Assembly: GCA_903907555.1 (NCBI GenBank)
Contig: CAIVOO010000080.1
Location: 1-49,353, forward strand
From: an uncultured archaeon
Lineage (GTDB): Archaea; Nanobdellota; Nanobdellia; Woesearchaeales; CAIVOO01
Direction of reading: 5' to 3'
DNA: 49,353 nt
The position numbers and the translations under genes were made by a program. Below, one piece after another: positions 1-33,512 of the stretch. The notes under the pieces are model-generated. The model saw only the letters and a program-made list of their open reading frames with translations, ran no database searches and was not told the origin of the DNA. Each line of letters starts with the position of its first letter. Position 1 is the first letter of the stretch.

Positions 1-104
1 AGCTAATCATGGGGCGGGCCTCTTGGCTGGATAACTTCAGTGGCAGCTCTCTCTTCGATGCTGATTACCGTAGCATAAACAACTTTAACCGTCTTCGTGG
101 GGTA
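1..104 (+). repeat. DGR variable region (VR), possibly truncated by the window edge
   Basis: Aligns without gaps to 457-560 (offset 456) with 89/104 identical. All 15 mismatches lie at adenines of the 457-560 copy (10 A>G, 4 A>T, 1 A>C). The first non-A mismatch is at 105/561. Confidence 0.9.
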
Positions 105-275
105 CGTAGTGCGAGCGAAGCGAGCGTAGAAGCGCAAGTTGCGCCGAAGGCGCAGGACGCAAAAAAATTAGTGCATCCAGCTCTAGATGATGTTTTGGCA
201 TGCTTAGGAGATGACGTAGCTCCTTCAGTGCGTCCAAAAGTTGAAGAGAGAATACGAAAGCTATATAACATTTAA
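1..275 (+). CDS. DGR target (variable) protein, C-terminal fragment; the gene starts upstream of the window
   Basis: Frame 3 is open from the window edge to TAA 273-275, so the ATG at 9 is internal. GRASWLDNFSGSSLFDADYRSINNFNRLRG is the diversified copy of the Asn-rich TR-encoded peptide. The G-x-SW ... R-x-RG layout resembles lectin/FGE-fold DGR variable regions. Confidence 0.8.
   Translation, partial: LIMGRASWLDNFSGSSLFDADYRSINNFNRLRGVRSASEASVEAQVAPKAQDAKKLVHPALDDVLACLGDDVAPSVRPKVEERIRKLYNI
132..153 (+). promoter_or_regulatory. GC-rich stem-loops just 3' of VR (candidate DGR target-site hairpin)
   Basis: gcgcc-gaa-ggcgc (141-153) overlaps the alternative gcgc-aagtt-gcgc (132-144). Both lie in a conspicuously GC-rich block (105-160) that is absent from the TR copy. 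Confidence 0.45.
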
Positions 276-456
276 TTTTTATCTTCTTTTTTGTCTCAGA
301 GCTCCTAGTGGAGTAGTCTGGACTACATGCTCTTTTGCCATGGTTGAGGCGACTCGGCTATAAAACCTTTAATCTGGACAAGTTCTAGGTTGATAATTAC
401 AGCTGTGACAGAAAGCCTTCGAGTTTTCCTGAAACAGCGGTGCATGAGGCAATAAG

Positions 457-560
457 AGCTAATCATGGGGCGGGCCTCTTGGCTGAATAACTTCAATAAC
501 AACTCTAACTTCAATGCTAATAACCGTAACATAAACAACAATAACCGTCTTCGTGGAATA
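457..560 (+). repeat. DGR template region (TR)
   Basis: This is the adenine-rich invariant copy (37 A in 104 nt). In the VR frame it reads NNFNNNSNFNANNRNINNNN, i.e. AAY codons. It ends 28 nt before the RT ATG. Confidence 0.9.
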
Positions 561-587
561 GCCCAGGCTTTGAGATATTATAATCTC

Positions 588-1661
588 ATGGCAGCTTACA
601 GGAATTTGTGGAATGAATTGTGCAGCAGCCAGAATCTAGAGTTGGCTTTCAGGAAAGCCAGAAAGCATAAAACACTAAAAAAGTATGTGATAGATTTTGA
701 AGCGAATTTGCATGATAACCTTTCTATATTGAGAGCAGAGCTTCTGCTGCATTCATACAGTCCTAAACCTCTGGAAACTTTTATACTGCGAGATCCGAAA
801 ACCAGAAAGATAAGCAAATCAGACTTTAGGGACAGGGTTGTGCATCATGCTTTATGCAATATTCTTGAGCCTATTCTGGAAAAAGGTTTTATTTATGATT
901 CTTACGCCAACAGGATAGGTAAAGGTGCATTCAAGGCAGTGGACAGGTTTAAATTATTCTCTAAAAAAGTTTCGAGAAATAATTCTAGAAATGCCTTTGT
1001 ACTGAAAGCAGACATCAGGCATTATTTTGATACAGTAGACCACAAGATACTTCTAAGCATACTGAAAAAGAGAATTAAGGACAAAAACCTGTTGTGGCTT
1101 ATTAGAAAGATATTAAGCAATCATTCTGCAGAGAAAGGCATGCCTTTAGGCAATCTTACTTCCCAATTCTTTGCTAATGTGTATCTTAATGAACTAGACC
1201 AATTTGTAAAACATAAACTAAAAGCGAAATATTATATCAGATATGTTGATGATTTCATCATAATGCACAGCTCTTATGAGGTCTTGGAAGAATGGAAATT
1301 AAAAATAGGATTTTTTCTAAACAATCACTTATTCTTGGAATTGCATCCAGATAAATCTAAGATTGTTACCATGCATCGAGGCATAGAATTTCTGGGGTTT
1401 AACATATTAACTAACCACTTATTGCTTAAGAGAAGAAATCTGAGAAAATTTCGCAGGAAACTTATAGAAATTTGTCGCCTTCATGAGCTAAATCAAATAA
1501 GTTATGACAAAGTTTACGATTTTATGGAAGGATGGTGCGCCTACGCCAAACACGCAGACACATACAACATGAGAAAAAATATCCTAAATTCCTTCGAAGA
1601 AAAATTCTCCCAAGAAATTTCGAGCAAAGAAATTAATAGGCTTGCAGCAATAAAAAGCTAA
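588..1661 (+). CDS. DGR-type reverse transcriptase
   Basis: PLGNLTSQFFANVYL (I/LGxxxSQ signature) and YIRYVDDFIIM (YxDD catalytic box). The track ORF starts at 465 only because the TR frame runs open into the RT. ATG 588 (MAAYRNLWNEL...) is the likelier start. Confidence 0.88.
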   Translation: MAAYRNLWNELCSSQNLELAFRKARKHKTLKKYVIDFEANLHDNLSILRAELLLHSYSPKPLETFILRDPKTRKISKSDFRDRVVHHALCNILEPILEKGFIYDSYANRIGKGAFKAVDRFKLFSKKVSRNNSRNAFVLKADIRHYFDTVDHKILLSILKKRIKDKNLLWLIRKILSNHSAEKGMPLGNLTSQFFANVYLNELDQFVKHKLKAKYYIRYVDDFIIMHSSYEVLEEWKLKIGFFLNNHLFLELHPDKSKIVTMHRGIEFLGFNILTNHLLLKRRNLRKFRRKLIEICRLHELNQISYDKVYDFMEGWCAYAKHADTYNMRKNILNSFEEKFSQEISSKEINRLAAIKS

Positions 1662-1730
1662 TAGAATATTGCTATTTAGCCAGCCTAATTCAAACCGTAT
1701 AAAGCTCTAATTCGAGGCTTATAGCCATTA

Positions 1731-1752
1731 TCAGCGGTATTTTTACCGCTGA
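1731..1752. terminator. Hairpin between convergent genes (candidate bidirectional terminator)
   Basis: tcagcggta-tttt-taccgctga forms a 9-bp perfect stem. It lies 70 nt after the RT stop and overlaps the stop codon of the minus-strand gene. Confidence 0.4.
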
Positions 1753-2906
1753 CTAACCGCTGAAAGCAATTCCAGAACCTTCTCTTGAGCTTTCTTAGCA
1801 GTCAAACAAAAGCTCTTCTGCCCATCAACAAAAGGCACATACCTTTTCAGGTTAGCTTTAGAGCTAACAAAAATCCACTTATCAAAATGCTCATTAAGCC
1901 AAGAAACTTTCGATACAACCTGCTCAGAATTATTGATACCAGACTCAATCTCAATAGCCAACTTCAAGTCATCTGATACGAAAGCAACATCAGCTCTCTT
2001 GCCCTCTAAGCTGTACTCTAATTTCATGTCTTTGTGCATTTCTTTAAACAAATGCTTCATAATGAAATGATGATTACTCTCACTCTTGCTATCCTTCTTT
2101 ACATAAAATCCACTATTGCTGACTTTTCCATTAAGCTCTATGCCACGAGCAAAAATAAACCCTTGATTAGTAGCACGAATTTTCATCTCATCATCCAACT
2201 CATTAGTCCTGTAAAAATCTCTTTTCAATTTCGGACCAGAATTATCCAATTCTCTAAACTTTTTCAGAGAAATTTTCCCATCTTCAACATCTTCTCTAAC
2301 TTTAGCATAGATGATTTCAGCATCCCACTGAAGCTCAGGCTTAGTATCTAAACTGTTAGTTTGATAATAAGCTATAGCCTCTTCTCTCAATCTCTTATAC
2401 CTCTTCTGGTCACTCATGTAGTCTTCAAATTTTTCTCTAGCCTTTCTATTAACTTCATAAGCGTATTTTTTATTTAGAGGCAAGGCTTTCTCAGACTTCT
2501 TAGATTTCTTAAATTCAAACAACTCATTAACTAGCCTATCCTCTTCTTCACGACGTAAAGTTTCAACACGCAACTTCTCCAATCTCCATCTTTCTTCTGA
2601 TTCGGCAAATTCACGCATTCTCTTAGCTTCATTATCTTTTCTAAAGCTTTCTTGTAGTTCTTTTTCTGCTTCTCTTTTCTCAGACTCTAGTTTCTGCTCC
2701 TCTTGATATCTTTTCTCAATATGCTCGTGGCGTTTCTTAATTAAGAACACTAAAGCCCAAACAAACAAGATTATTACCGCAACTACACACAACACAACAA
2801 AAACATTATACCAGCTAAAAGAGGCATTAATTTCGTCAGATTTCTTTAGATAAACTATGCCTGCAAGTACAACACCCACAATGATTAACTCCATTTCGTT
2901 TTGCAT
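1743..2906 (-). CDS. Membrane-anchored coiled-coil protein with a possible C-terminal PD-(D/E)xK-like nuclease fold
   Basis: Two N-terminal hydrophobic helices are followed by ~150 aa of E/K/R-rich heptad-like sequence. The C-terminus carries HHFIMKH...RADVAFV...LAIEIESG, reminiscent of restriction-endonuclease-like cores. The family was not recognised. Confidence 0.6.
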   Translation of the reverse strand: MQNEMELIIVGVVLAGIVYLKKSDEINASFSWYNVFVVLCVVAVIILFVWALVFLIKKRHEHIEKRYQEEQKLESEKREAEKELQESFRKDNEAKRMREFAESEERWRLEKLRVETLRREEEDRLVNELFEFKKSKKSEKALPLNKKYAYEVNRKAREKFEDYMSDQKRYKRLREEAIAYYQTNSLDTKPELQWDAEIIYAKVREDVEDGKISLKKFRELDNSGPKLKRDFYRTNELDDEMKIRATNQGFIFARGIELNGKVSNSGFYVKKDSKSESNHHFIMKHLFKEMHKDMKLEYSLEGKRADVAFVSDDLKLAIEIESGINNSEQVVSKVSWLNEHFDKWIFVSSKANLKRYVPFVDGQKSFCLTAKKAQEKVLELLSAVSQR

Positions 2907-2907
2907 T

Positions 2908-4119
2908 TTACACAGTGTGATTCAATCCAATACCCTTAAGTTTCTCCATCAAAAAAGCTTGAACCTCTTTATCCTGCATCAGCATGTTCATCATTTGGTC
3001 AGAGTTGGCTCTAAGTTTCTCTTGCTGCTCTTTTCTCTCTTCTAACTCCATAGCATACTTCAAATCCAATATTCCGCCGCATTTGCTGCAGTGCTTGAAT
3101 TCATTAGAGTTTATGGTATCACAGCGAGAACAAATTCTAGGCAGCAACTTGCTTTCATCTTTCTTCTCCTCGTTCTTTATGCCATTCATAGCTAGAACTG
3201 CGTCATCAACTTCCCTGCCGCTCATGTGAACATAAGTCGAGGGCATGTCGCTTCCTTGTATCCATCCGAAATATTGATTCATCTGAAACTCTGTCAGATG
3301 ATTAGCCATATATGTAGCTCTTGAGTGTCTGAATATGTGCGGATTGAATCTTTTCTTTATGCCAACTTTCTTGAATAGATTCTCTAAAAGTTTTCTAATA
3401 GCCCCATAACACATTACCTTATTATGGTTAGTTTGTCCTATGTTAACCCATAACGGAGAATTATTGTCTTCCCTGAATGGATGACTATTAATCCATGTAG
3501 AAAGGTATGGTGTGCTTGATATCATCCTAATCTTCCTAGAGCCAGTTTTTCCTTTAACTGATATTACAACCCCATATTTGTCAAAGCTAACATTTCTTAT
3601 GCACAGATTACCAATCTCGCTAACTCTAGCTCCAGACTCCCACAACACAGAAACAAAAGCCTTATCACGAGGATGGTCTGATAACCTCACAAGTTTTTGT
3701 ACGTCATCTTCTGTGAGCAGTTCTCCTTCGCTAGGAAGCCTTTTCTCGCACCTGCTTATACCTATATTAATCCATTTCACAATATCTGGATATTCTTCAG
3801 TACCTTTGATCCATTTGTAAAATCTTCTAATAATCACCTTATACCCTTGCTTAGTCCAAGGTGACAGATTGCTTTGCTGTATCTTGCTGATAAAACTCTT
3901 AACATCTTCTATAGAAGTTTCATCGAAATCTTTACTAATTCTTTCTGCAACTATTTTCAAAGTATTAAGGTACTTCACTAATCTGGGTTTTGATATATTC
4001 TCCAAAACTAGAGCTTCATTAAACCTAAGAATCAATTCTTTATTCTTAGCTGATATCTGAGCTCCACGTACCTGGTCCAAGGCGCTTTCATACTGTTTCT
4101 CATAATTATGGATATCCAT
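2908..4119 (-). CDS. Tyrosine recombinase/integrase (XerC/D-like) with a C-terminal zinc ribbon
   Basis: WESGARVSE (box I Arg), HIFRHSRATYMANH (HxxR) and STYVHM (catalytic Tyr region), plus CSRCDTINSNEFKHCSKCGG. It lies 77 nt from the 3' end of tRNA-Ser. Confidence 0.85.
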   Translation of the reverse strand: MDIHNYEKQYESALDQVRGAQISAKNKELILRFNEALVLENISKPRLVKYLNTLKIVAERISKDFDETSIEDVKSFISKIQQSNLSPWTKQGYKVIIRRFYKWIKGTEEYPDIVKWINIGISRCEKRLPSEGELLTEDDVQKLVRLSDHPRDKAFVSVLWESGARVSEIGNLCIRNVSFDKYGVVISVKGKTGSRKIRMISSTPYLSTWINSHPFREDNNSPLWVNIGQTNHNKVMCYGAIRKLLENLFKKVGIKKRFNPHIFRHSRATYMANHLTEFQMNQYFGWIQGSDMPSTYVHMSGREVDDAVLAMNGIKNEEKKDESKLLPRICSRCDTINSNEFKHCSKCGGILDLKYAMELEERKEQQEKLRANSDQMMNMLMQDKEVQAFLMEKLKGIGLNHTV

Positions 4120-4143
4120 AGACTTACCTCTTTAGAAACAGCA

Positions 4144-4155
4144 TTTATAAATTTT
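4144..4155 (-). promoter_or_regulatory. TATA-like box upstream of the integrase
   Basis: On the minus strand this reads AAAATTTATAAA about 30 nt upstream of the ATG (4119). A GAGGT motif lies 6 nt before the ATG. Confidence 0.35.
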
Positions 4156-4196
4156 GTAGCCCAAAAGGGCCTCCGGGCGTTGCGCCCGAAGTCCTA

Positions 4197-4324
4197 CGCC
4201 GTCACCCGGACTCTCTCACTAGCGTTCGGAGCATTATCGCCCTGGGCGCTAATATTTGAACCGGGATACCCTTGCGGGAATCGGTTTTCGAGACCGACGC
4301 AGTACCGGATTGTGCCATGACGGC
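4197..4324 (-). tRNA. tRNA-Ser(CGA) with a ~44-nt non-canonical intron in the T arm
   Basis: Acceptor GCCGTCA/TGACGGC, 3-bp D stem, anticodon stem TCGGT/ACCGA with loop CTCGAAA. Long variable arm CCC-GCAA-GGG. T stem CCCGG/CCGGG with TTCAAAT, followed by 44 extra nt before the 3' T-stem strand. Confidence 0.75.
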
Positions 4325-4378
4325 ATATTGTGAATTATTTCTCATTCGCCTTAAATAAGTTTCTAGAAAAATATGAAA

Positions 4379-4393
4379 TAATGCTTCGGCCGG
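4379..4393. repeat. 15-nt direct repeat TAATGCTTCGGCCGG (copy 1; copy 2 at 4445-4459 overlaps the tRNA-Glu 3' end)
   Basis: The exact 15-mer occurs twice, 66 nt apart. The second copy covers the tRNA-Glu acceptor 3' strand plus 3 trailer nt. Confidence 0.8.
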
Positions 4394-4447
4394 CACGAGA
4401 AACCATTTCGAGATGGTTTCTGGGTCGTCCTTCGCATTACTTCGTAA

Positions 4448-4538
4448 TGCTTCGGCCGGGATTTGAACCCGGGTCGGAGCCTTTCTTCGCTTTATGCTCG
4501 AGAGGGCTCCATCCTTGGCCGGTCTAGACTACCGAAGC
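4448..4538 (-). tRNA. tRNA-Glu(CUC) with a 16-nt canonical (37/38) intron
   Basis: Acceptor GCTTCGG/CCGAAGC, anticodon stem GAGCC/GGCTC, loop CTCTCG-[AGCATAAAGCGAAGAA]-A, T arm CCGGG-TTCAAAT-CCCGG. Confidence 0.8.
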
Positions 4539-4585
4539 GGTATACGAATAGAAAAACCAAAACGTTTTTAAATTCTTCCCCTCGA

Positions 4586-4876
4586 ATGCACTTTTCTATG
4601 GATTACACAAACAAAAGAATATGTGATATTGTAGGTGAAGAGCGAATACATGAGATAGCTAAAATGTCTGTACCTTTTTTGTCTAGATTGATTTATGGCA
4701 CAGATTTTGCTGCGGAATTCCTGTCAGATGCTTTCAAGCACTGCACAGTTTCTAACCTTGAGCATTTTTATGAATCTCATTCTTGGTATTACGAGGAATA
4801 TTCAGCAAGACCGAGATATGAAAAGGTTATTGCTGCTGTAAGAAAGATTATGTCAGAAAATTGTACAGATTCCTAA
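4586..4876 (+). CDS. Hypothetical protein (96 aa)
   Basis: The track ORF 4463..4876 overlaps tRNA-Glu, so the internal ATG at 4586 (MHFSMDYTNKR...) lying after the tRNA is the plausible start. Confidence 0.5.
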   Translation: MHFSMDYTNKRICDIVGEERIHEIAKMSVPFLSRLIYGTDFAAEFLSDAFKHCTVSNLEHFYESHSWYYEEYSARPRYEKVIAAVRKIMSENCTDS

Positions 4877-4877
4877 A

Positions 4878-4950
4878 TGAGCCCAACGGGATTCGAACCC
4901 GCGACCTACCGATTAAGAGTCGGTTGCGCTAGCCGCTGCGCTATGGGCCC
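4878..4950 (-). tRNA. tRNA-Lys(CUU)
   Basis: GGGCCCA acceptor, anticodon stem ACCGA/TCGGT with loop CTCTTAA, T arm GCGGG-TTCGAAT-CCCGT. 73 nt with no intron. Confidence 0.85.
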
Positions 4951-5007
4951 TTATCTATGAATTTTCCTAGGTAATATTTAAATACCTTTCTATGCGGTTA
5001 GCTTAAA

Positions 5008-6144
5008 ATGAAGATTAAGCCTACTGGGTACTATTCATGGAAAACTGACGATTTTAAGCTAGCTAAGGGCTGCCAGCTGTGCGTCAAGGGCAGTAAGATG
5101 GTTCTTTTCGCTACAGGAATATGTCCGAGGCATTGTTTCTATTGTCCTGTTTCTGAAAAAAAGCATCAGAAAGATGTTGTTTATGCAAATGAGTGGAAGA
5201 TTTCTTCTGACAAAGACATGATTGAGGAATGTATCTTGACAGAAGCCAAAGGTTCAGGCATCACTGGTGGAGATCCATTGGCAAGACTGCCAAGAGTTTT
5301 GAAATATATCGGGATGTTAAAGAAGAAATTCGGAAAAAACTTTCACATACATCTTTACACACCTCCTGATTTGCTTTCAATCCCGACATTAAAGAAGTTG
5401 TATTCTGCAGGGCTTGATGAAATTCGCGTTCATCCAGATATTTTCAGCAATAAATTGTGGCACAAGGTTGATTTGCTGAAGAAATTCAAGTGGTCTGTCG
5501 GAATGGAGATACCTGTGCTTCCTGACGCTGAAAAACAATTATCCAACCTAATCTTTAATATGATTGGAAAAGTTGATTTCATCAACTTAAACGAACTCGA
5601 AATCTCAGATACTAATGCGCAGAATCTTGTGGGAAGAGGATATTTTCCGAAAGACAAGATATCTTATGGAGTAAAAGGCTGCGACAAGCTTGCAAAAAAG
5701 CTAATGAAAAAATTTGGAGACAAGATTCCAATACATTATTGCACATGCAAGCTGAAAGATAAGGTGCAGATGGCAAACAGAATCAAAATTAGAGCGAAAA
5801 ATGTCGCAAAGAAGTTTGATATTGTGACTAATGAAGGCATGCTGATTCGCGGAGCAATCTATCTGCCGAAAATCCTTCCGGGTTTTGATTATGAAAAGCG
5901 TTTGTTGAAAGTAAATAACATAATTACATTGAAAAAGTTGAATAAAACAAAAAATGAGCTTGCCAAGAATTTTAAGATTCCAAAAAACTTGCTAGATGTA
6001 GATGAAAAAAGATATCGTTTGCTCACTAACATAGGTGTGGTAGAGCATTTAGCAAAAGTATTAAAAAAGATGAATCTTGTTCCAGCAATAGTTGAAGAAT
6101 ATCCGACGTGGGACGCAATACAGCTGGATATCACATTCATTTAG
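5008..6144 (+). CDS. Radical SAM domain protein
   Basis: CPRHCFYC (CxxxCxxC) cluster motif near the N-terminus, and a GGDPL-type motif. Confidence 0.8.
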   Translation: MKIKPTGYYSWKTDDFKLAKGCQLCVKGSKMVLFATGICPRHCFYCPVSEKKHQKDVVYANEWKISSDKDMIEECILTEAKGSGITGGDPLARLPRVLKYIGMLKKKFGKNFHIHLYTPPDLLSIPTLKKLYSAGLDEIRVHPDIFSNKLWHKVDLLKKFKWSVGMEIPVLPDAEKQLSNLIFNMIGKVDFINLNELEISDTNAQNLVGRGYFPKDKISYGVKGCDKLAKKLMKKFGDKIPIHYCTCKLKDKVQMANRIKIRAKNVAKKFDIVTNEGMLIRGAIYLPKILPGFDYEKRLLKVNNIITLKKLNKTKNELAKNFKIPKNLLDVDEKRYRLLTNIGVVEHLAKVLKKMNLVPAIVEEYPTWDAIQLDITFI

Positions 6145-17178: not shown

Positions 17179-19101
17179 TTATATCTTTCCTAAGTAAACT
17201 TTCTTGACTCCCTGCACCCTCTTGACCCTGTTTATCAAATCCTTAAGGTGCTCTAAATCATCAATCGCAAGCGCAAACCTGCATTCTGCAAGGTCAGGGC
17301 TTATTATTTTCGCATTTGCGCCCTGGACATTTGTTCCGGTGGCTGCGATAGTGTTCAGCACATCTGCGAACAAGCCAACCCTGTCAACTGTTTCAAGAAT
17401 TACCTCGACAGTTCCTACATAATCATTCTTCCATTTTGACTTTACTCTCTTTTGTACAACCCTGCCTTTCTCAAGCGCTTCGCAATCCTGCCTGTGCACA
17501 GTGATTATGTTCGTCTTTCCTTTCAGCCCGATTATGTCTTCCCCAGGCAGAGGGTTGCAGCATTTGCTAAGCCTTATTGTCGGGTTTTCATATTTCTCTG
17601 TGATTATCAGATTCTTTGAAATCTCCTCGCTTTCTGCCTCTACCGGATGATATCTTCTCACAGGCATCTTGCCGGATTCTTGAAGATGCTTTCTTATTTT
17701 CTGCTTTGCCTTGTTTGTCTTGGCTATCTTCATCCAGTTCCTGCTCGGCTTCTGGTTTTTTGAAGTAAGAATTTCAACGACATCGCCTGTCTTGAGCTCT
17801 GTCCTTATTGAAGAGAATGTGCCGTTAATTTTCGCTCCTGTGCATCGGTCCCCAAGATTCGAGTGGACTGCGTAAGCCAGGTCAATCACAGTCGAGCCGC
17901 TTGGCAGTTCGATAACATCGCCTTTCGGAGTGAAAACATAAATCTCATTCCCGAAGAAATCAACTTCCACAGATTCGACAAACTCCTGCGGGCTTGTTGT
18001 GCTCTTCTGCCAGTCCATTATCTGCTTAAGCCAGGAAAGTTTCTTGTCGAATTTTGAATCATCTGTCTTGACGTCCTTGTATTCCCAGTGGGCAGCGACT
18101 CCTTCCTCGGCAATCCTGTCCATTTCAGCAGTCCTTATCTGGATTTCAACAATCTGCCCGCTTTCTGTTATAGCGATTGTGTGCAATGATTGGTACATAT
18201 TGGTTTTCGGCATTGCAATGTAATCCTTGAATCTTCTCGGGATTGGTTTCCACATCCCGTGTATGAGCCCAAGAACTTCATAGCAGTCCTTTACGGATTT
18301 TGTGATTATCCTCATGCCTATGACATCATATATCTCATCAAAATTTCTTTCTTTTCTCTGCATCTTTCTCCAGATGCTGTAAATATCTTTCGCCCTTCCA
18401 TGGATTGCTGCTTCTATGTGTGCGTCTTTCAAGGCATTCTTGACAATTTTCTTGATAATCTCAACCTCTTCCTCACGCTCTTTCTGGTTTTTCTTTATCT
18501 TTTCCTCAATTTCACTGTATTTTTCAGGTTCTAGTATCTTGAATGCCAAATCTTCAAGCTCTGATTTGATTTTGTCTATTCCAAGCCTGTACGCGAGAGG
18601 GGCATAAACATCCATGACTTCTTTCGCAATCCTTATCTGCTTCTCCCTTGGCAGGTAGCCAAGAGTTCGCATGTTATGCAGCTTGTCGCACAACTTTATT
18701 ATGAGAACCCTGATGTCTTTTGCTGTTGCAAAAAGCATTTTTCTTAATGATTCAGCTTGATATTCTTCCCTGCTCTTGGCTTTCAGTTCAGTAATCTTGG
18801 TAACTCCGTCAACAAGCAGGGCAACATCTGCGCCAAAAGCTTTCTTTATGTAATTAACGTCATAATTGGCATCTTCTATGACATCATGAAGAAGCGCTGC
18901 GCAGATAGACTCATCATCCATCTGGAATTCTGCAAGAATATATGCAACATTAAGCGGGTGTTCGATATAAGGCTCCCCGGAAGCCCTCTTGTCATTCTTG
19001 TGGGCTTCTGCAGCAACTTCATAGGCCTTCTCTATAAGCTTGAAGTCTGCATTCTGGTTGTATTCCCTTACCTTCTTGAGAACGTCCTGTATTGTCGTCA
19101 T
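17179..19101 (-). CDS. Long RelA/SpoT homolog (bifunctional (p)ppGpp synthetase/hydrolase architecture)
   Basis: HD domain (HPLNVAYIL...LLHDVIED) and synthetase domain (RAKDIYSIWRKM, MRIITKSV, YQSLHT, EIQIRT, AHWEYK). TGS domain (VFTPKGDVIELP...GDVVEILT) and a C-terminal ACT-like domain. Confidence 0.9.
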   Translation of the reverse strand: MTTIQDVLKKVREYNQNADFKLIEKAYEVAAEAHKNDKRASGEPYIEHPLNVAYILAEFQMDDESICAALLHDVIEDANYDVNYIKKAFGADVALLVDGVTKITELKAKSREEYQAESLRKMLFATAKDIRVLIIKLCDKLHNMRTLGYLPREKQIRIAKEVMDVYAPLAYRLGIDKIKSELEDLAFKILEPEKYSEIEEKIKKNQKEREEEVEIIKKIVKNALKDAHIEAAIHGRAKDIYSIWRKMQRKERNFDEIYDVIGMRIITKSVKDCYEVLGLIHGMWKPIPRRFKDYIAMPKTNMYQSLHTIAITESGQIVEIQIRTAEMDRIAEEGVAAHWEYKDVKTDDSKFDKKLSWLKQIMDWQKSTTSPQEFVESVEVDFFGNEIYVFTPKGDVIELPSGSTVIDLAYAVHSNLGDRCTGAKINGTFSSIRTELKTGDVVEILTSKNQKPSRNWMKIAKTNKAKQKIRKHLQESGKMPVRRYHPVEAESEEISKNLIITEKYENPTIRLSKCCNPLPGEDIIGLKGKTNIITVHRQDCEALEKGRVVQKRVKSKWKNDYVGTVEVILETVDRVGLFADVLNTIAATGTNVQGANAKIISPDLAECRFALAIDDLEHLKDLINRVKRVQGVKKVYLGKI

Positions 19102-27303: not shown

Positions 27304-27392
27304 ACGCCAGTGGTCTAACGGCATGATACGAGCTTCCCACGTAGAAACTACGGAAAGAGCTTGTGATCCGGGTTCAATTCCCGGCTGGCGTA
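27304..27392 (+). tRNA. tRNA-Gly(CCC) with an 18-nt canonical intron
   Basis: Acceptor ACGCCAG/CTGGCGT, anticodon stem CGAGC/GCTTG, loop TTCCCA-[CGTAGAAACTACGGAAAG]-A, T arm CCGGG-TTCAATT-CCCGG. Confidence 0.75.
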
Positions 27393-32447: not shown

Positions 32448-33512
32448 CTACATATTCTTGTATGTTTCAACTTCTTTCTCTAAAATAACTAATTCAACTC
32501 CTGCTTTCTTGAACATCTCGATGCTTTCCTGCGCAGCGTGGTACATCTTATGCGCAACAACCCTTTTTATTCCTGTGCTTATTATCATCATTGCGCAAAC
32601 CCTGCACGGCGCCATTTTGCAGTATACTGTACCGCCTTGAATGCTTATTCCATTTTTTGCTGCCTGCAGCATTGCATTCTGCTCTGCGTGTATTGTTCTC
32701 ATGCAGTGCTGCCTTACTGTGCCGTCATCATCAATCACTTTTTTCATGAGATGCCCGACTTCGTCGCAGTGCGGCAGTCCTGGAGGCGAGCCTACATAGC
32801 CTGTGCATAGTATTCTTTTGTCTTTCACAATTAATGCCCCGCTTCTTCCCCTGTCGCAGCTTCCTCTCTTGCCGATTTCATTCATTATGTTGATAAAGTA
32901 TTCGTCCCAGCTCGGTCTTTTGTAAGTAGATGGTGTTTCTACTGTCTGCACTGGCGGTTTTGTCTTGATTTTCAAATCAGCAACCATCTTGTCAACTTTT
33001 TTCATCAGAGTGTAAACATCAGAATCGTTCATAAGAACTATGCTTGCCATGCTCATGCATTCGCCGATTCTCTGCCCTGAGCCTGTCTGCCCTGTCATTT
33101 CAAGTTCTTCCATCGCCTTGAATTCTTCAATCGTCTGAGGGTCTTCTTCCCTTTCTCTCTTTTTCATCCGCAGAAATCTGACTTCAAGCGGAGCATCAAC
33201 CTTTACTAAATGGAAATCATATTTTTTCTTTAGCGCATTGACTTCATCAGGATGCCTTATTGATGTAATGACATAATCTTTGCCTACAATTAATTTCTTC
33301 AGGACTCTTTCAGCAAGCACTGAATTGCCATGTTTCTCTCTTAACTCATTGCCTATCTTCTGAAGGTTTTCCCTTGTGACTTTCTTCTTTTTTGCCTTCA
33401 AGTCCTCTCTTAGAATGTCAGAAAGCGATATGTGCATGAAACCTTTCTCTTTTAGGTAATCGCCAACAGTATCCTTCCCCCCGCAAAAACTTCCTGTCAA
33501 ACCTATAATCAT
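32448..33512 (-). CDS. Fusion protein: N-terminal P-loop nucleotide kinase-like domain plus C-terminal dCMP deaminase
   Basis: GLTGSFCGGKDT P-loop at the N-terminus. HAEQNAMLQAA and PCRVCAMMI zinc motifs in the C-terminal ~150 aa. Confidence 0.8.
   Translation of the reverse strand: MIIGLTGSFCGGKDTVGDYLKEKGFMHISLSDILREDLKAKKKKVTRENLQKIGNELREKHGNSVLAERVLKKLIVGKDYVITSIRHPDEVNALKKKYDFHLVKVDAPLEVRFLRMKKREREEDPQTIEEFKAMEELEMTGQTGSGQRIGECMSMASIVLMNDSDVYTLMKKVDKMVADLKIKTKPPVQTVETPSTYKRPSWDEYFINIMNEIGKRGSCDRGRSGALIVKDKRILCTGYVGSPPGLPHCDEVGHLMKKVIDDDGTVRQHCMRTIHAEQNAMLQAAKNGISIQGGTVYCKMAPCRVCAMMIISTGIKRVVAHKMYHAAQESIEMFKKAGVELVILEKEVETYKNM

Follow-up and report, generated by a model that had tools for sequence, protein, structure and literature searches.

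A probable DPANN-type diversity-generating retroelement with a structured template RNA on a Woesearchaeales contig

We analysed a contig of an uncultured archaeon (CAIVOO010000080.1, GenBank assembly GCA_903907555.1; GTDB order Woesearchaeales), all 49,353 nt of which we call the window. Its first 1,661 nt very probably hold the 3' two thirds of a complete diversity-generating retroelement (DGR) cassette of the nanoarchaeal/DPANN type, consisting of a target gene, a DGR RNA with its template repeat (TR), plus a reverse transcriptase (RT). A first-pass annotation made from the sequence alone had proposed a DGR in an archaeal, DPANN-like context, and our analysis agrees: TR and variable repeat (VR) differ at adenines only, the RT resembles bRT of Bordetella phage BPP-1, and relatives of the cassette lie in metagenome-assembled genomes (MAGs) named Woesearchaeota or Nanoarchaeota. 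A DPANN-like context is consistent with these relatives of RT and target and with the genes of the window, on which it rests, and not on a formal classification. The parts of the cassette are as follows.

1 to 104, + strand: VR; aligns without gaps to 457–560, with adenine-only mismatches and 13 mutagenised sites at 30–85
3 to 275, + strand: 3' part of the target gene (90 codons and stop), for a variable protein with a predicted AvpA-like C-type-lectin fold; the VR is internal
89 to 104, + strand: initiation of mutagenic homing (IMH) sequence, CCGTCTTCGTGGGGTA, with TGGGGT at 98–103; the invariant 3' end of the VR, encoding an invariant LRGV strand
140 to 154, + strand: GC-rich hairpin or cruciform, TGCGCC-GAA-GGCGCA, within the target coding sequence and 35 nt past the VR; loop GAA at 146–148
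247 to 260, + strand: candidate archaeal TFIIB recognition element (BRE)/TATA box, cgaaag-CTATATAA, 32 nt before the first RNA helix (H0) and overlapping the last target codons
293 to 576, + strand: structured DGR RNA enclosing the TR, with covariation across loci
457 to 560, + strand: TR, with 37 adenines and 14 AAY codons in the target frame; IMH* at 545–560, TGGAAT at 554–559
588 to 1661, + strand: DGR RT, 357 aa, with LGNLTSQ and YVDD (RVT_1, E 2.7e-24; bRT 8ub7_A, E 7e-45)

The VR and TR align with 15 mismatches, every one of them on a TR adenine (10 A>G, 4 A>T and 1 A>C). None of the 67 non-adenine positions of the 104-nt TR is changed in the VR, and the chance of all 15 mismatches falling on adenines is 2e-8 (hypergeometric). 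Similarity ends abruptly from 105/561 on. This formal alignment reproduces the ungapped repeat described in the first-pass annotation, including the replacement of 15 of 37 adenines and the lack of any non-adenine difference before 105/561. The 15 replacements are nevertheless of two kinds: 13 are mutagenic, as had been supposed, and two of the A>G changes are instead a fixed difference between IMH and IMH*. Without the IMH positions, 13 mismatches remain, all on the 34 adenines of the first 100 nt (p = 1.3e-7). These 13 sites span VR positions 30–85 and hit 10 of the 14 AAY codons of the TR, which allow about 3e16 possible proteins. In the target frame, that is, the open reading frame (ORF) stopping at 273–275, the template reads NNFNNNSNFNANNRNINNNN and the variable copy DNFSGSSLFDADYRSINNFN; the TR translates to LIMGRASWLNNFNNNSNFNANNRNINNNNRLRGI and the VR to LIMGRASWLDNFSGSSLFDADYRSINNFNRLRGV. 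Of the 15 changes, 13 sit at codon positions 1–2. The 11 changed codons counted earlier correspond to 10 amino-acid changes in the strings then given, the eleventh being an IMH-derived Ile>Val at 102. We found no further VR-like copy on either strand of the 49-kb window. VR/TR homology reaches base 1 of the window, and the true 5' limit of the VR is hidden by the window edge.

The VR ends in the IMH (CCGTCTTCGTGGGGTA) and the TR in its counterpart IMH* (CCGTCTTCGTGGAATA). Related pairs of the same target type end in CGTGGGGTACG in the VR and CGTGGAATA in the TR (L001, two pairs in L008, L012/L013 and L014/L015), and TGGGGT versus TGGAAT is constant in all seven VR/TR pairs of this target type, from five related loci. 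Because the difference is constant in all of the relatives' pairs, we regard GG at 101–102 versus AA at 557–558 as a fixed IMH/IMH* difference rather than fresh mutagenesis. Seven adenine-only VR/TR pairs occur in the same cassette across Woesearchaeota/Nanoarchaeota loci (L001, L008, L012 and L014). A further locus, L010, has the same TR and RNA but failed the strict adenine-only pair test; it has a further VR-like end, which reads GGTACG where visible. In L008 (4268–7313), a single TR (at 6126) diversifies two adjacent genes, with VRs at 4850 and 5683; the second target is a 226-aa protein to which no family was assigned.

The RT reading frame is already open at 465, since the TR is by chance in frame and stop-free. 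LGNLTSQ and YVDD, which the first-pass annotation had pointed out in the adjacent ORF, are both read in ORF 465–1661. The RT most likely starts at ATG 588, and its alignment with bRT starts at residue 5 of bRT and residue 4 of the query. Its best solved relative is bRT (328 aa), as against an E value of 1.7e-24 for the best group II intron RT. We take 8ub7_A to be bRT because its D138, I181, G182, Q187, K29, F66, R74 and I76 are the residues named by Handa et al. (bioRxiv 10.1101/2023.10.23.563531). The window RT shares D138, G182, Q187, F66, R74, I76 and the catalytic aspartates of YMDD with bRT, and has Leu for I181. The RT also matches PHROG 1423, 'Reverse transcriptase' (E 8.5e-118). Searching IMG/VR with a profile built from the RT and 23 relatives, we identified 74 loci with RT relatives (27–57% identity), 53 of which have a strict adenine-only VR/TR pair within 2.5-kb flanks; a scan of the same database with the single RT sequence gave no match. 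The closest RTs (60–71% identity) come from MAGs named Woesearchaeota, Nanoarchaeota or Nanoarchaeia, and the exact RT protein is present on six contigs. An Asn-rich TR peptide lies in frame in about 50 of 120 homologous RT gene calls; a TR abutting the RT is therefore a clade feature. The RT had earlier been called DGR-type from its motifs, and the profile searches, with bRT as the best PDB match, maturase and retron models below their cut-offs and the PHROG assignment, support this as the probable type.

The target gene is cut by the window edge, as the first-pass annotation had recognized: the gene map of a sibling contig (47,828 bp) gives a 276-aa target at window coordinates -555..275, placing the start at -555. 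The VR corresponds to approximately residues 186–220 and is followed by a 57-aa tail. Neither a 29-mer scan of GTDB genomes for the upstream sequence nor an exact look-up of the partial target in a protein collection gave a match, and the 90-aa target fragment as query yielded one partial homolog only (P0121). L001, a Woesearchaeota MAG whose RT is 70% identical, has the same layout, with a target of 290 aa, VR RASWLLNFNYYSCFNAYFHLISNANSLRGV and TR RASWLNNFNNNSNFNANNHNINNNNSLRGI. Used as query, this full-length target returned 11 homologs; a target profile search returned 375 representatives of 50% identity clusters at E <= 1e-3, and scanning genome and metagenome collections with a target profile turned up three loci, L001 among them. 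The N-terminal 190 residues of the family are 55–65% conserved, and a family segment, WRASWLxxFxxxSxFxAxxRxxxxxxxLRGVR, is hypervariable exactly at the AAY positions of the TR.

Profile searches of the target against PDB and Pfam gave no meaningful match, and none to AvpA. AlphaFold (AF2) reached a predicted local distance difference test (pLDDT) score of 47.8 with 13 sequences, and a usable model with a 95-sequence alignment. For homolog P0128, at 60% identity to the window fragment, the AF2 model has a pLDDT of 92.7 and a predicted template modelling (TM) score of 0.80, and a Foldseek search of PDB with this model gave a sole match at E <= 0.001, AvpA (5ioo_A; E 3.9e-6, probability 1.00, TM-score 0.54/0.68). 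The modelling supports a predicted AvpA-like C-type-lectin fold for the target, bearing out the lectin-fold-like protein that the first-pass annotation had suggested. The proteins of the target family, about 280 aa in length, lack Pfam domains apart from one member fused to a Ser/Thr protein kinase (Pkinase, E 6.7e-49), and no signal peptide is evident by eye in the family. The kinase fusion and the lack of an obvious signal peptide hint at a role in intracellular sensing, not surface adhesion.

Some target homologs have no TR or RT nearby: those of L006/L007, between topoisomerase VI and KH/RIO genes, and that of L003, on a 1.56-Mb Woesearchaeota scaffold. In L002, a target tail within 1–420 has nothing of the cassette after it but the RNA's 5' core motif (at 311), and there is, at 5120–5740, a second VR/TR pair with an RT-16 RNA scoring at gathering level and no RT gene called downstream. 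These RT-less target and TR copies suggest fragmentary cassettes or cassettes served in trans.

The hairpin past the VR lies in surroundings of 61% GC, compared with 39% for the window. Hairpins occur at the same place in the relatives, with a GC stem of 4–7 bp, a GAA, GCA or GTA triloop and differing stem sequences (GTCCCC-GTA-GGGGAC, GCGCCC-GAA-GGGCGC, TCGCC-GAA-GGCGA and CGTCCGC-GAA-GCGGACG); the stems covary. An inverted-repeat tool at default settings missed the VR hairpin, which came from folding.

Conservation of the 180 nt from the target stop to the TR is above that of the neighbouring genes. RNAalifold applied to nine loci, three of which have TRs for unrelated VR types, gave five helices (H1–H5); with H0, they make up the following structure.

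293–301 with 568–576, + strand: H0, 9-bp closing helix, in six loci of the window's subtype
302 to 312, + strand: 5' hairpin, part of the DGR RNA
317–321 with 563–567, + strand: H1, whose 3' strand lies two nt past the GAATAG of the TR
322 to 328, + strand: invariant linker ACTACAY between H1 and H2
329–334 with 454–459, + strand: H2, whose 3' strand abuts or overlaps the first TR bases
342–346 with 355–359, + strand: H3, local hairpin
402–410 with 430–438, + strand: H4, helix of the DGR RNA
467–473 with 545–551, + strand: H5, joining the two GC-rich TR ends
297 to 442, + strand: match to the whole Rfam model RT-11 (RF03106), 104.4 bits against a gathering score of 143.5, E 2.6e-22

In the nine-locus alignment, 94.9% of cells are standard pairs, compared with 37–52% when the 3' partners are slid by 1–3 columns; double-sided changes affect 17 of 29 pairs, and none of 500 shuffles reached any observed measure. 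Twelve loci, including three not used for the derivation (L020, L021 and the second L002 element), gave 91.0% pairing, double changes in 23 of 29 pairs and again 0 of 500 shuffles, figures to be read with the structure having been derived from part of the tested sequences and 12 sequences being few. In L020 and L021, H2 is fully replaced yet paired (GCATCT/AGATGC and GCCCCT/AGGGGC, compared with GCTCTT/AAGAGC). H0 is paired at 9 of 9 positions in six loci: the window has GTCTCAGAG/CTTTGAGAT, compared with GTCTCAGCA/TGCTGAGAC in four of the five others, which amounts to two compensatory double changes, and L014 has GTCTCGGCA, with a G-U wobble. The TR as delimited by homology to the VR (457–560) is exactly the loop between H2, ending at 459, and H1, starting at 563. 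The H4 loop carries hairpin-rich insertions of 60–100 nt in some loci (L010:3880–3990, L016:2900–2970) with similar GAAATG...CATTTC repeats, suggestive of a variable expansion segment or of an inserted small repeat element.

The RNA of the window is a divergent relative of RT-11, below the curated membership threshold. It has the hairpins of RT-11 and its conserved single-stranded CUGGACUACACGCUCU in 297–442. RT-16 (RF03019) matches weakly at 285–467 (37.1 bits against a gathering score of 50). Relatives pass gathering at the same position, directly 5' of the TR: L012 for RT-11 (158.7 bits), and L016, L017, L018, L020, L021 and L002 for RT-16. In contrast to the structure described here, the RT-11 and RT-16 models end before the TR and lack H1 and H0, and RT-11 also lacks H2. 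RT-1 to RT-19 were defined as motifs near RT genes, with RT-10 placed in the BPP-1 spacer (Weinberg et al. 2017, PMC5737381); a DGR role was given only to RT-10, and retron or DGR roles of the others were speculated on (PMC5737381). We found no link of RT-11 or RT-16 to DGRs in the literature available to us.

Five of six RT-11-type loci have a cgaaag-YTATATAA-like box 32–33 nt upstream of their first helix. Its variants in L008, L010, L012 and L014 are cgaaag-TTATATAA, cggaag-TTATATAA, cgaaat-CTATATAA and agaaaa-GCATATAA. By its sequence and spacing, the box at 247–260 may be an archaeal BRE/TATA promoter of the DGR RNA, with transcription from about H0. It overlaps the end of the target gene (cga aag cta tat aac att taa, RKLYNI*, 247–275), and the conserved (R/K)(K/E)LY at the tail ends of the homologs may reflect promoter DNA rather than protein function. 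The hairpin at 140–154 likewise constrains the target tail. A second candidate for the promoter of the TR RNA, TATAAAA at 359–365, was rejected: it reads ATGAAA or GTGGAG in six of 12 loci, including L014, which is of the window's subtype, and lies inside the covarying RNA.

From the end of the TR to the ATG of the RT there are only 27 nt. There is no conserved ORF between target and RT on either strand among nine loci, and no Avd-family match in the approximately 30 genes mapped around the locus (+/-10 kb, precomputed Pfam map) or among the small ORFs scanned. We rejected two kinds of candidate for avd. ORFs on the reverse strand across the TR owe their existence to the stop-free TR complement alone and are not conserved; the 131- and 133-aa neighbours in L008 and L012 are unrelated proteins. 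Avd proteins are poorly conserved, so the absence of Avd at this DGR is not proven, and we describe the DGR as apparently Avd-free. An accessory gene (Avd or HRDC/MSL/CH1) is present in about 71% of DGRs, leaving 29% of a curated set without one, and in 90% of a CPR (candidate phyla radiation)/DPANN set an avd on the reverse strand separates TR and RT (Wu et al. 2018, PMC5758913).

We propose that such a cassette would work as follows. From the candidate promoter at about 247–260, one transcript would begin at about 285–293 (H0), span the RT-11-like domain and the TR and continue into the RT message, and the RT would bind the DGR RNA. Synthesis of cDNA would start beside H1, where the TR has its 3' end, with the first position at the AA in TGGAAT or just 5' of it; given this proposed start, the AA would never be transferred. 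The RT would then copy the TR, misincorporating opposite adenines, until synthesis halted at H2, and the cDNA would take the place of the VR, with IMH and hairpin as guides. In this way, as many as 14 Asn codons (~3e16 variants) could be recoded on the ligand-binding face of the predicted lectin fold. Since no Avd was found, we assume that RNA alone would give the scaffold that Avd and spacer RNA give in phage BPP-1.

Several points weigh against the interpretation of 1–1661 as part of a complete DGR cassette. The evidence for the fold comes from the model of homolog P0128, not from the window's target itself; the priming site, the transcript ends and the independence from Avd are what we infer, and Avd could be encoded elsewhere. 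VRs are identical between assemblies with identical RT (L012/L013, L014/L015 and L010/L011). In addition, P193 and W195 precede RASW (DP[FI]W-RASW) in 10 of 10 full-length homologs, and the window departs from this with LIMG, which is coded by sequence identical to the TR flank (1–11 versus 457–467). Either homing may have run on too far into the first ~11 nt of the VR, to the detriment of the protein, or these bases may be an artefact of assembly.

If an artefact, the start of the window (about 1–11, or up to 28) would be TR flank misjoined by the assembler at the repeat, with the real VR running from about 12. Consistent with this, VR/TR homology in L001, L008, L012 and L014 begins at GG(N)GGGC, the equivalent of window position 12, and the TR flank in the first 11 nt of the window displaces invariant residues. 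The window also begins at the repeat; a second assembly (32,449 bp) apparently starts <=3 nt from the window start, yet its RT ORF lies 146 nt further on, and the contig of P0121 breaks at its own VR. The shared stretch, however, is 29 nt, short for chimera formation at large k, and the 47,828-bp contig crosses the site with an intact 276-aa target gene. DGR 5' boundaries vary with the extent of homology (PMC5758913), and the VR/TR boundary coincides with H2, the expected stop of cDNA synthesis. We consider a misjoin unlikely.

The first-pass annotation had also suggested that the element is active or recently active. From the lack of mismatches at the 67 non-adenine positions, the intact RT and an RNA that preserves its structure, with compensatory changes in H0, we infer that the DGR is probably active or was so recently. 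A cassette that homed in the past and is now inactive, its VR a frozen allele, could account for the identical VRs in independent assemblies of related loci, for the conserved Pro and Trp before RASW being replaced by Ile and Gly encoded by the TR flank, which could mark a damaged target, and for target homologs without a nearby RT (L003, L006/L007). Such a fossil sits poorly with an RT ORF that is intact and has all its motifs, with 0 of 67 non-adenine mismatches accumulated, with RNA helices kept by compensatory changes, including window-specific ones in H0, and with the intact 276-aa target ORF of the sibling contig, and we give it little credence.

We dismiss the idea that the RT is that of a retron or group II intron and that the 104-nt repeat arose by a duplication unconnected with it, its adenine bias being accidental: although the best-scoring NCBIfam model is a group II intron RT/maturase (TIGR04416), retron and DRT models match weakly, and some sources label RT homologs 'retron-type' or 'group II intron RT', the scores fall far under the curated cut-offs (170 bits versus 300 for TIGR04416, 58 versus 235 for retron_St85_RT), bRT leads the solved matches by 20 orders of magnitude, Rfam searches gave no match to group II intron RNA in the whole window at gathering score or in 1–5000 at E <= 1, the adenine restriction has p ~1e-7 and recurs in related loci, and the RNA next to the RT is RT-11-like and encloses a TR with a VR copy, unlike retron msr/msd.

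The cassette shares much with the DGRs described in DUSEL4 Nanoarchaeota, which have TGGGGT/TGGAAT and, within the target gene, a GRA-triloop hairpin (Paul et al. 2015, PMC4372165), and with other DPANN DGRs (PMC5758913). Common to them and to the window are IMH TGGGGT and IMH* TGGAAT, a GRA-type triloop hairpin in the target gene, an internal VR in an orphan target of ~260–280 aa with a C-terminal tail, a target upstream of TR and RT on one strand, and RT relatives named Nanoarchaeota or Woesearchaeota. Unlike theirs, the target family here has no detectable sequence similarity to AvpA. Avd-sized ORFs are marked between RT and target in the nanoarchaeal DGR figure (PMC4372165), whereas here there is no Avd-sized ORF between the two. 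The RNA around the TR is undescribed in both papers (PMC4372165, PMC5758913).

Comparison with the BPP-1 DGR (mtd-avd-TR-brt) likewise reveals both similarities and differences. Adenine-specific TR-to-VR transfer, IMH/IMH* and a GC hairpin past the VR are common to both, and the RT is 32–35% identical to bRT with the same active-site and template-contacting residues. In the BPP-1 ribonucleoprotein, a template:primer duplex pairs TR117–129 with Sp47–56, with priming from A56, and a 'stop' duplex pairs Sp59–70 with a segment just upstream of the TR, so that both partner strands are 3' of the TR (bioRxiv 10.1101/2023.10.23.563531). In both systems two adjacent RNA duplexes leave the TR as a loop between them, one involving sequence just 5' of the TR, the second the TR 3' end or flank. 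However, both duplexes draw their partner strand from the 5' side of the TR here (317–334, RT-11-like) and from its 3' side in BPP-1 (spacer, Rfam RT-10), and the linker between the duplexes is 7 invariant nt (ACTACAY) here and 2 in BPP-1. The window cassette also has no Avd that we could find, a TR-RT gap of only 27 nt and a VR that is not C-terminal, and its context is an archaeal chromosome rather than a phage tail fibre.

By analogy with BPP-1, we hypothesize that the archaeal RNA is a circular permutation of the phage arrangement, and that priming would occur from the GG(A/G)CUACAY junction. Taken together, RT-11 and RT-16 could be the RNA that acts in cis in the DGRs of a DPANN clade without Avd; this RNA would be a circularly permuted form of the spacer RNA of BPP-1, with cDNA cis-primed from the GG(A/G)CUACAY junction upstream of the TR without an accessory protein. 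We put this combined proposal forward tentatively, as a possibility that could well prove wrong.

AvpA has a C-type-lectin fold, an internal VR (181–203), a 46-residue tail holding the DNA hairpin, and an IMH-coded beta5 strand, RFxGV (Handa et al. 2016, PMC5006420). The window's target resembles it (5IOO) in its predicted single-domain C-type-lectin fold with inserts, its internal VR, its hairpin-carrying tail of two helices (predicted here) and its IMH-coded beta strand (RFxGV in AvpA, RLRGV here). The position of the VR is similar too, near residues 181–210 in AvpA and about 195–227 here. The window's target differs from AvpA in that identity is 12%, with no profile-level match, the VR is longer (14 AAY codons compared with 10), and the family is ~25 aa longer.

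DPANN DGRs, the TGGGGT/TGGAAT pair, the triloop hairpin and the AvpA lectin fold have been in the literature since 2015–2016, and nothing here is categorically new. What our analysis adds is a second, sequence-unrelated target family of predicted AvpA-like fold; a tie between the orphan Rfam motifs RT-11 and RT-16 and DGR templates, with the motifs extended by covarying long-range helices that delimit the TR exactly; and a compact, apparently Avd-free system of RT and RNA, ~1.4 kb in all, that offers a testbed for Avd-less cDNA priming and stopping. Such a system could also be of interest for engineered targeted mutagenesis.

Directly upstream of the target, in the sibling map and in L001:3556–4841 and L010:1–1236, lies a divergent gene pair, a DUF6036/AbiEii-like nucleotidyltransferase (220–230 aa) and a partner of ~200 aa. 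The partner is 74% identical between L001 and L010, and the three loci are otherwise non-syntenic. The pair could be a type IV toxin-antitoxin system travelling with the DGR, or an unrecognised accessory module. Nearby pairs in other loci are HEPN/Polbeta in L014 and ParE in L012.

Downstream of the RT (1743–4538) are a 387-aa protein that has a coiled coil and, at its N-terminus, a membrane segment, and to which no family was assigned; a XerA-like tyrosine recombinase with a C-terminal zinc ribbon (2908–4119, minus strand); and a tRNA gene (4448–4538, minus strand; 45.5 bits, 91 nt, probably intron-bearing) whose 3' end faces the recombinase. The DGR might be on a small element integrated at this tRNA, with the other att site off the window.

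Elsewhere, the window encodes Orc1/Cdc6, archaeal RqcH and RtcB/archease, in addition to the XerA-like recombinase and two over-long tRNAs. The second of these, tRNA-Arg(ACG) at 27304–27392 (89 nt, 48.5 bits), has a probable intron, consistent with an archaeal genome. Adjoining Orc1/Cdc6 is a RelA/SpoT-family (p)ppGpp synthetase/hydrolase of 640 aa (17179–19101, minus strand; 727 bits, above the TIGR00691 cut-off); because long RelA/SpoT homologs are unusual in archaea, the gene may be a bacterial acquisition. Finally, a 354-aa protein (32448–33512, minus strand) has a dCMP/dCTP-deaminase domain, and its N-terminal part matches 'anti-phage dCTP deaminase' with 109 bits against a cut-off of 400; the gene could serve nucleotide-depletion defence or ordinary dCMP deaminase metabolism.

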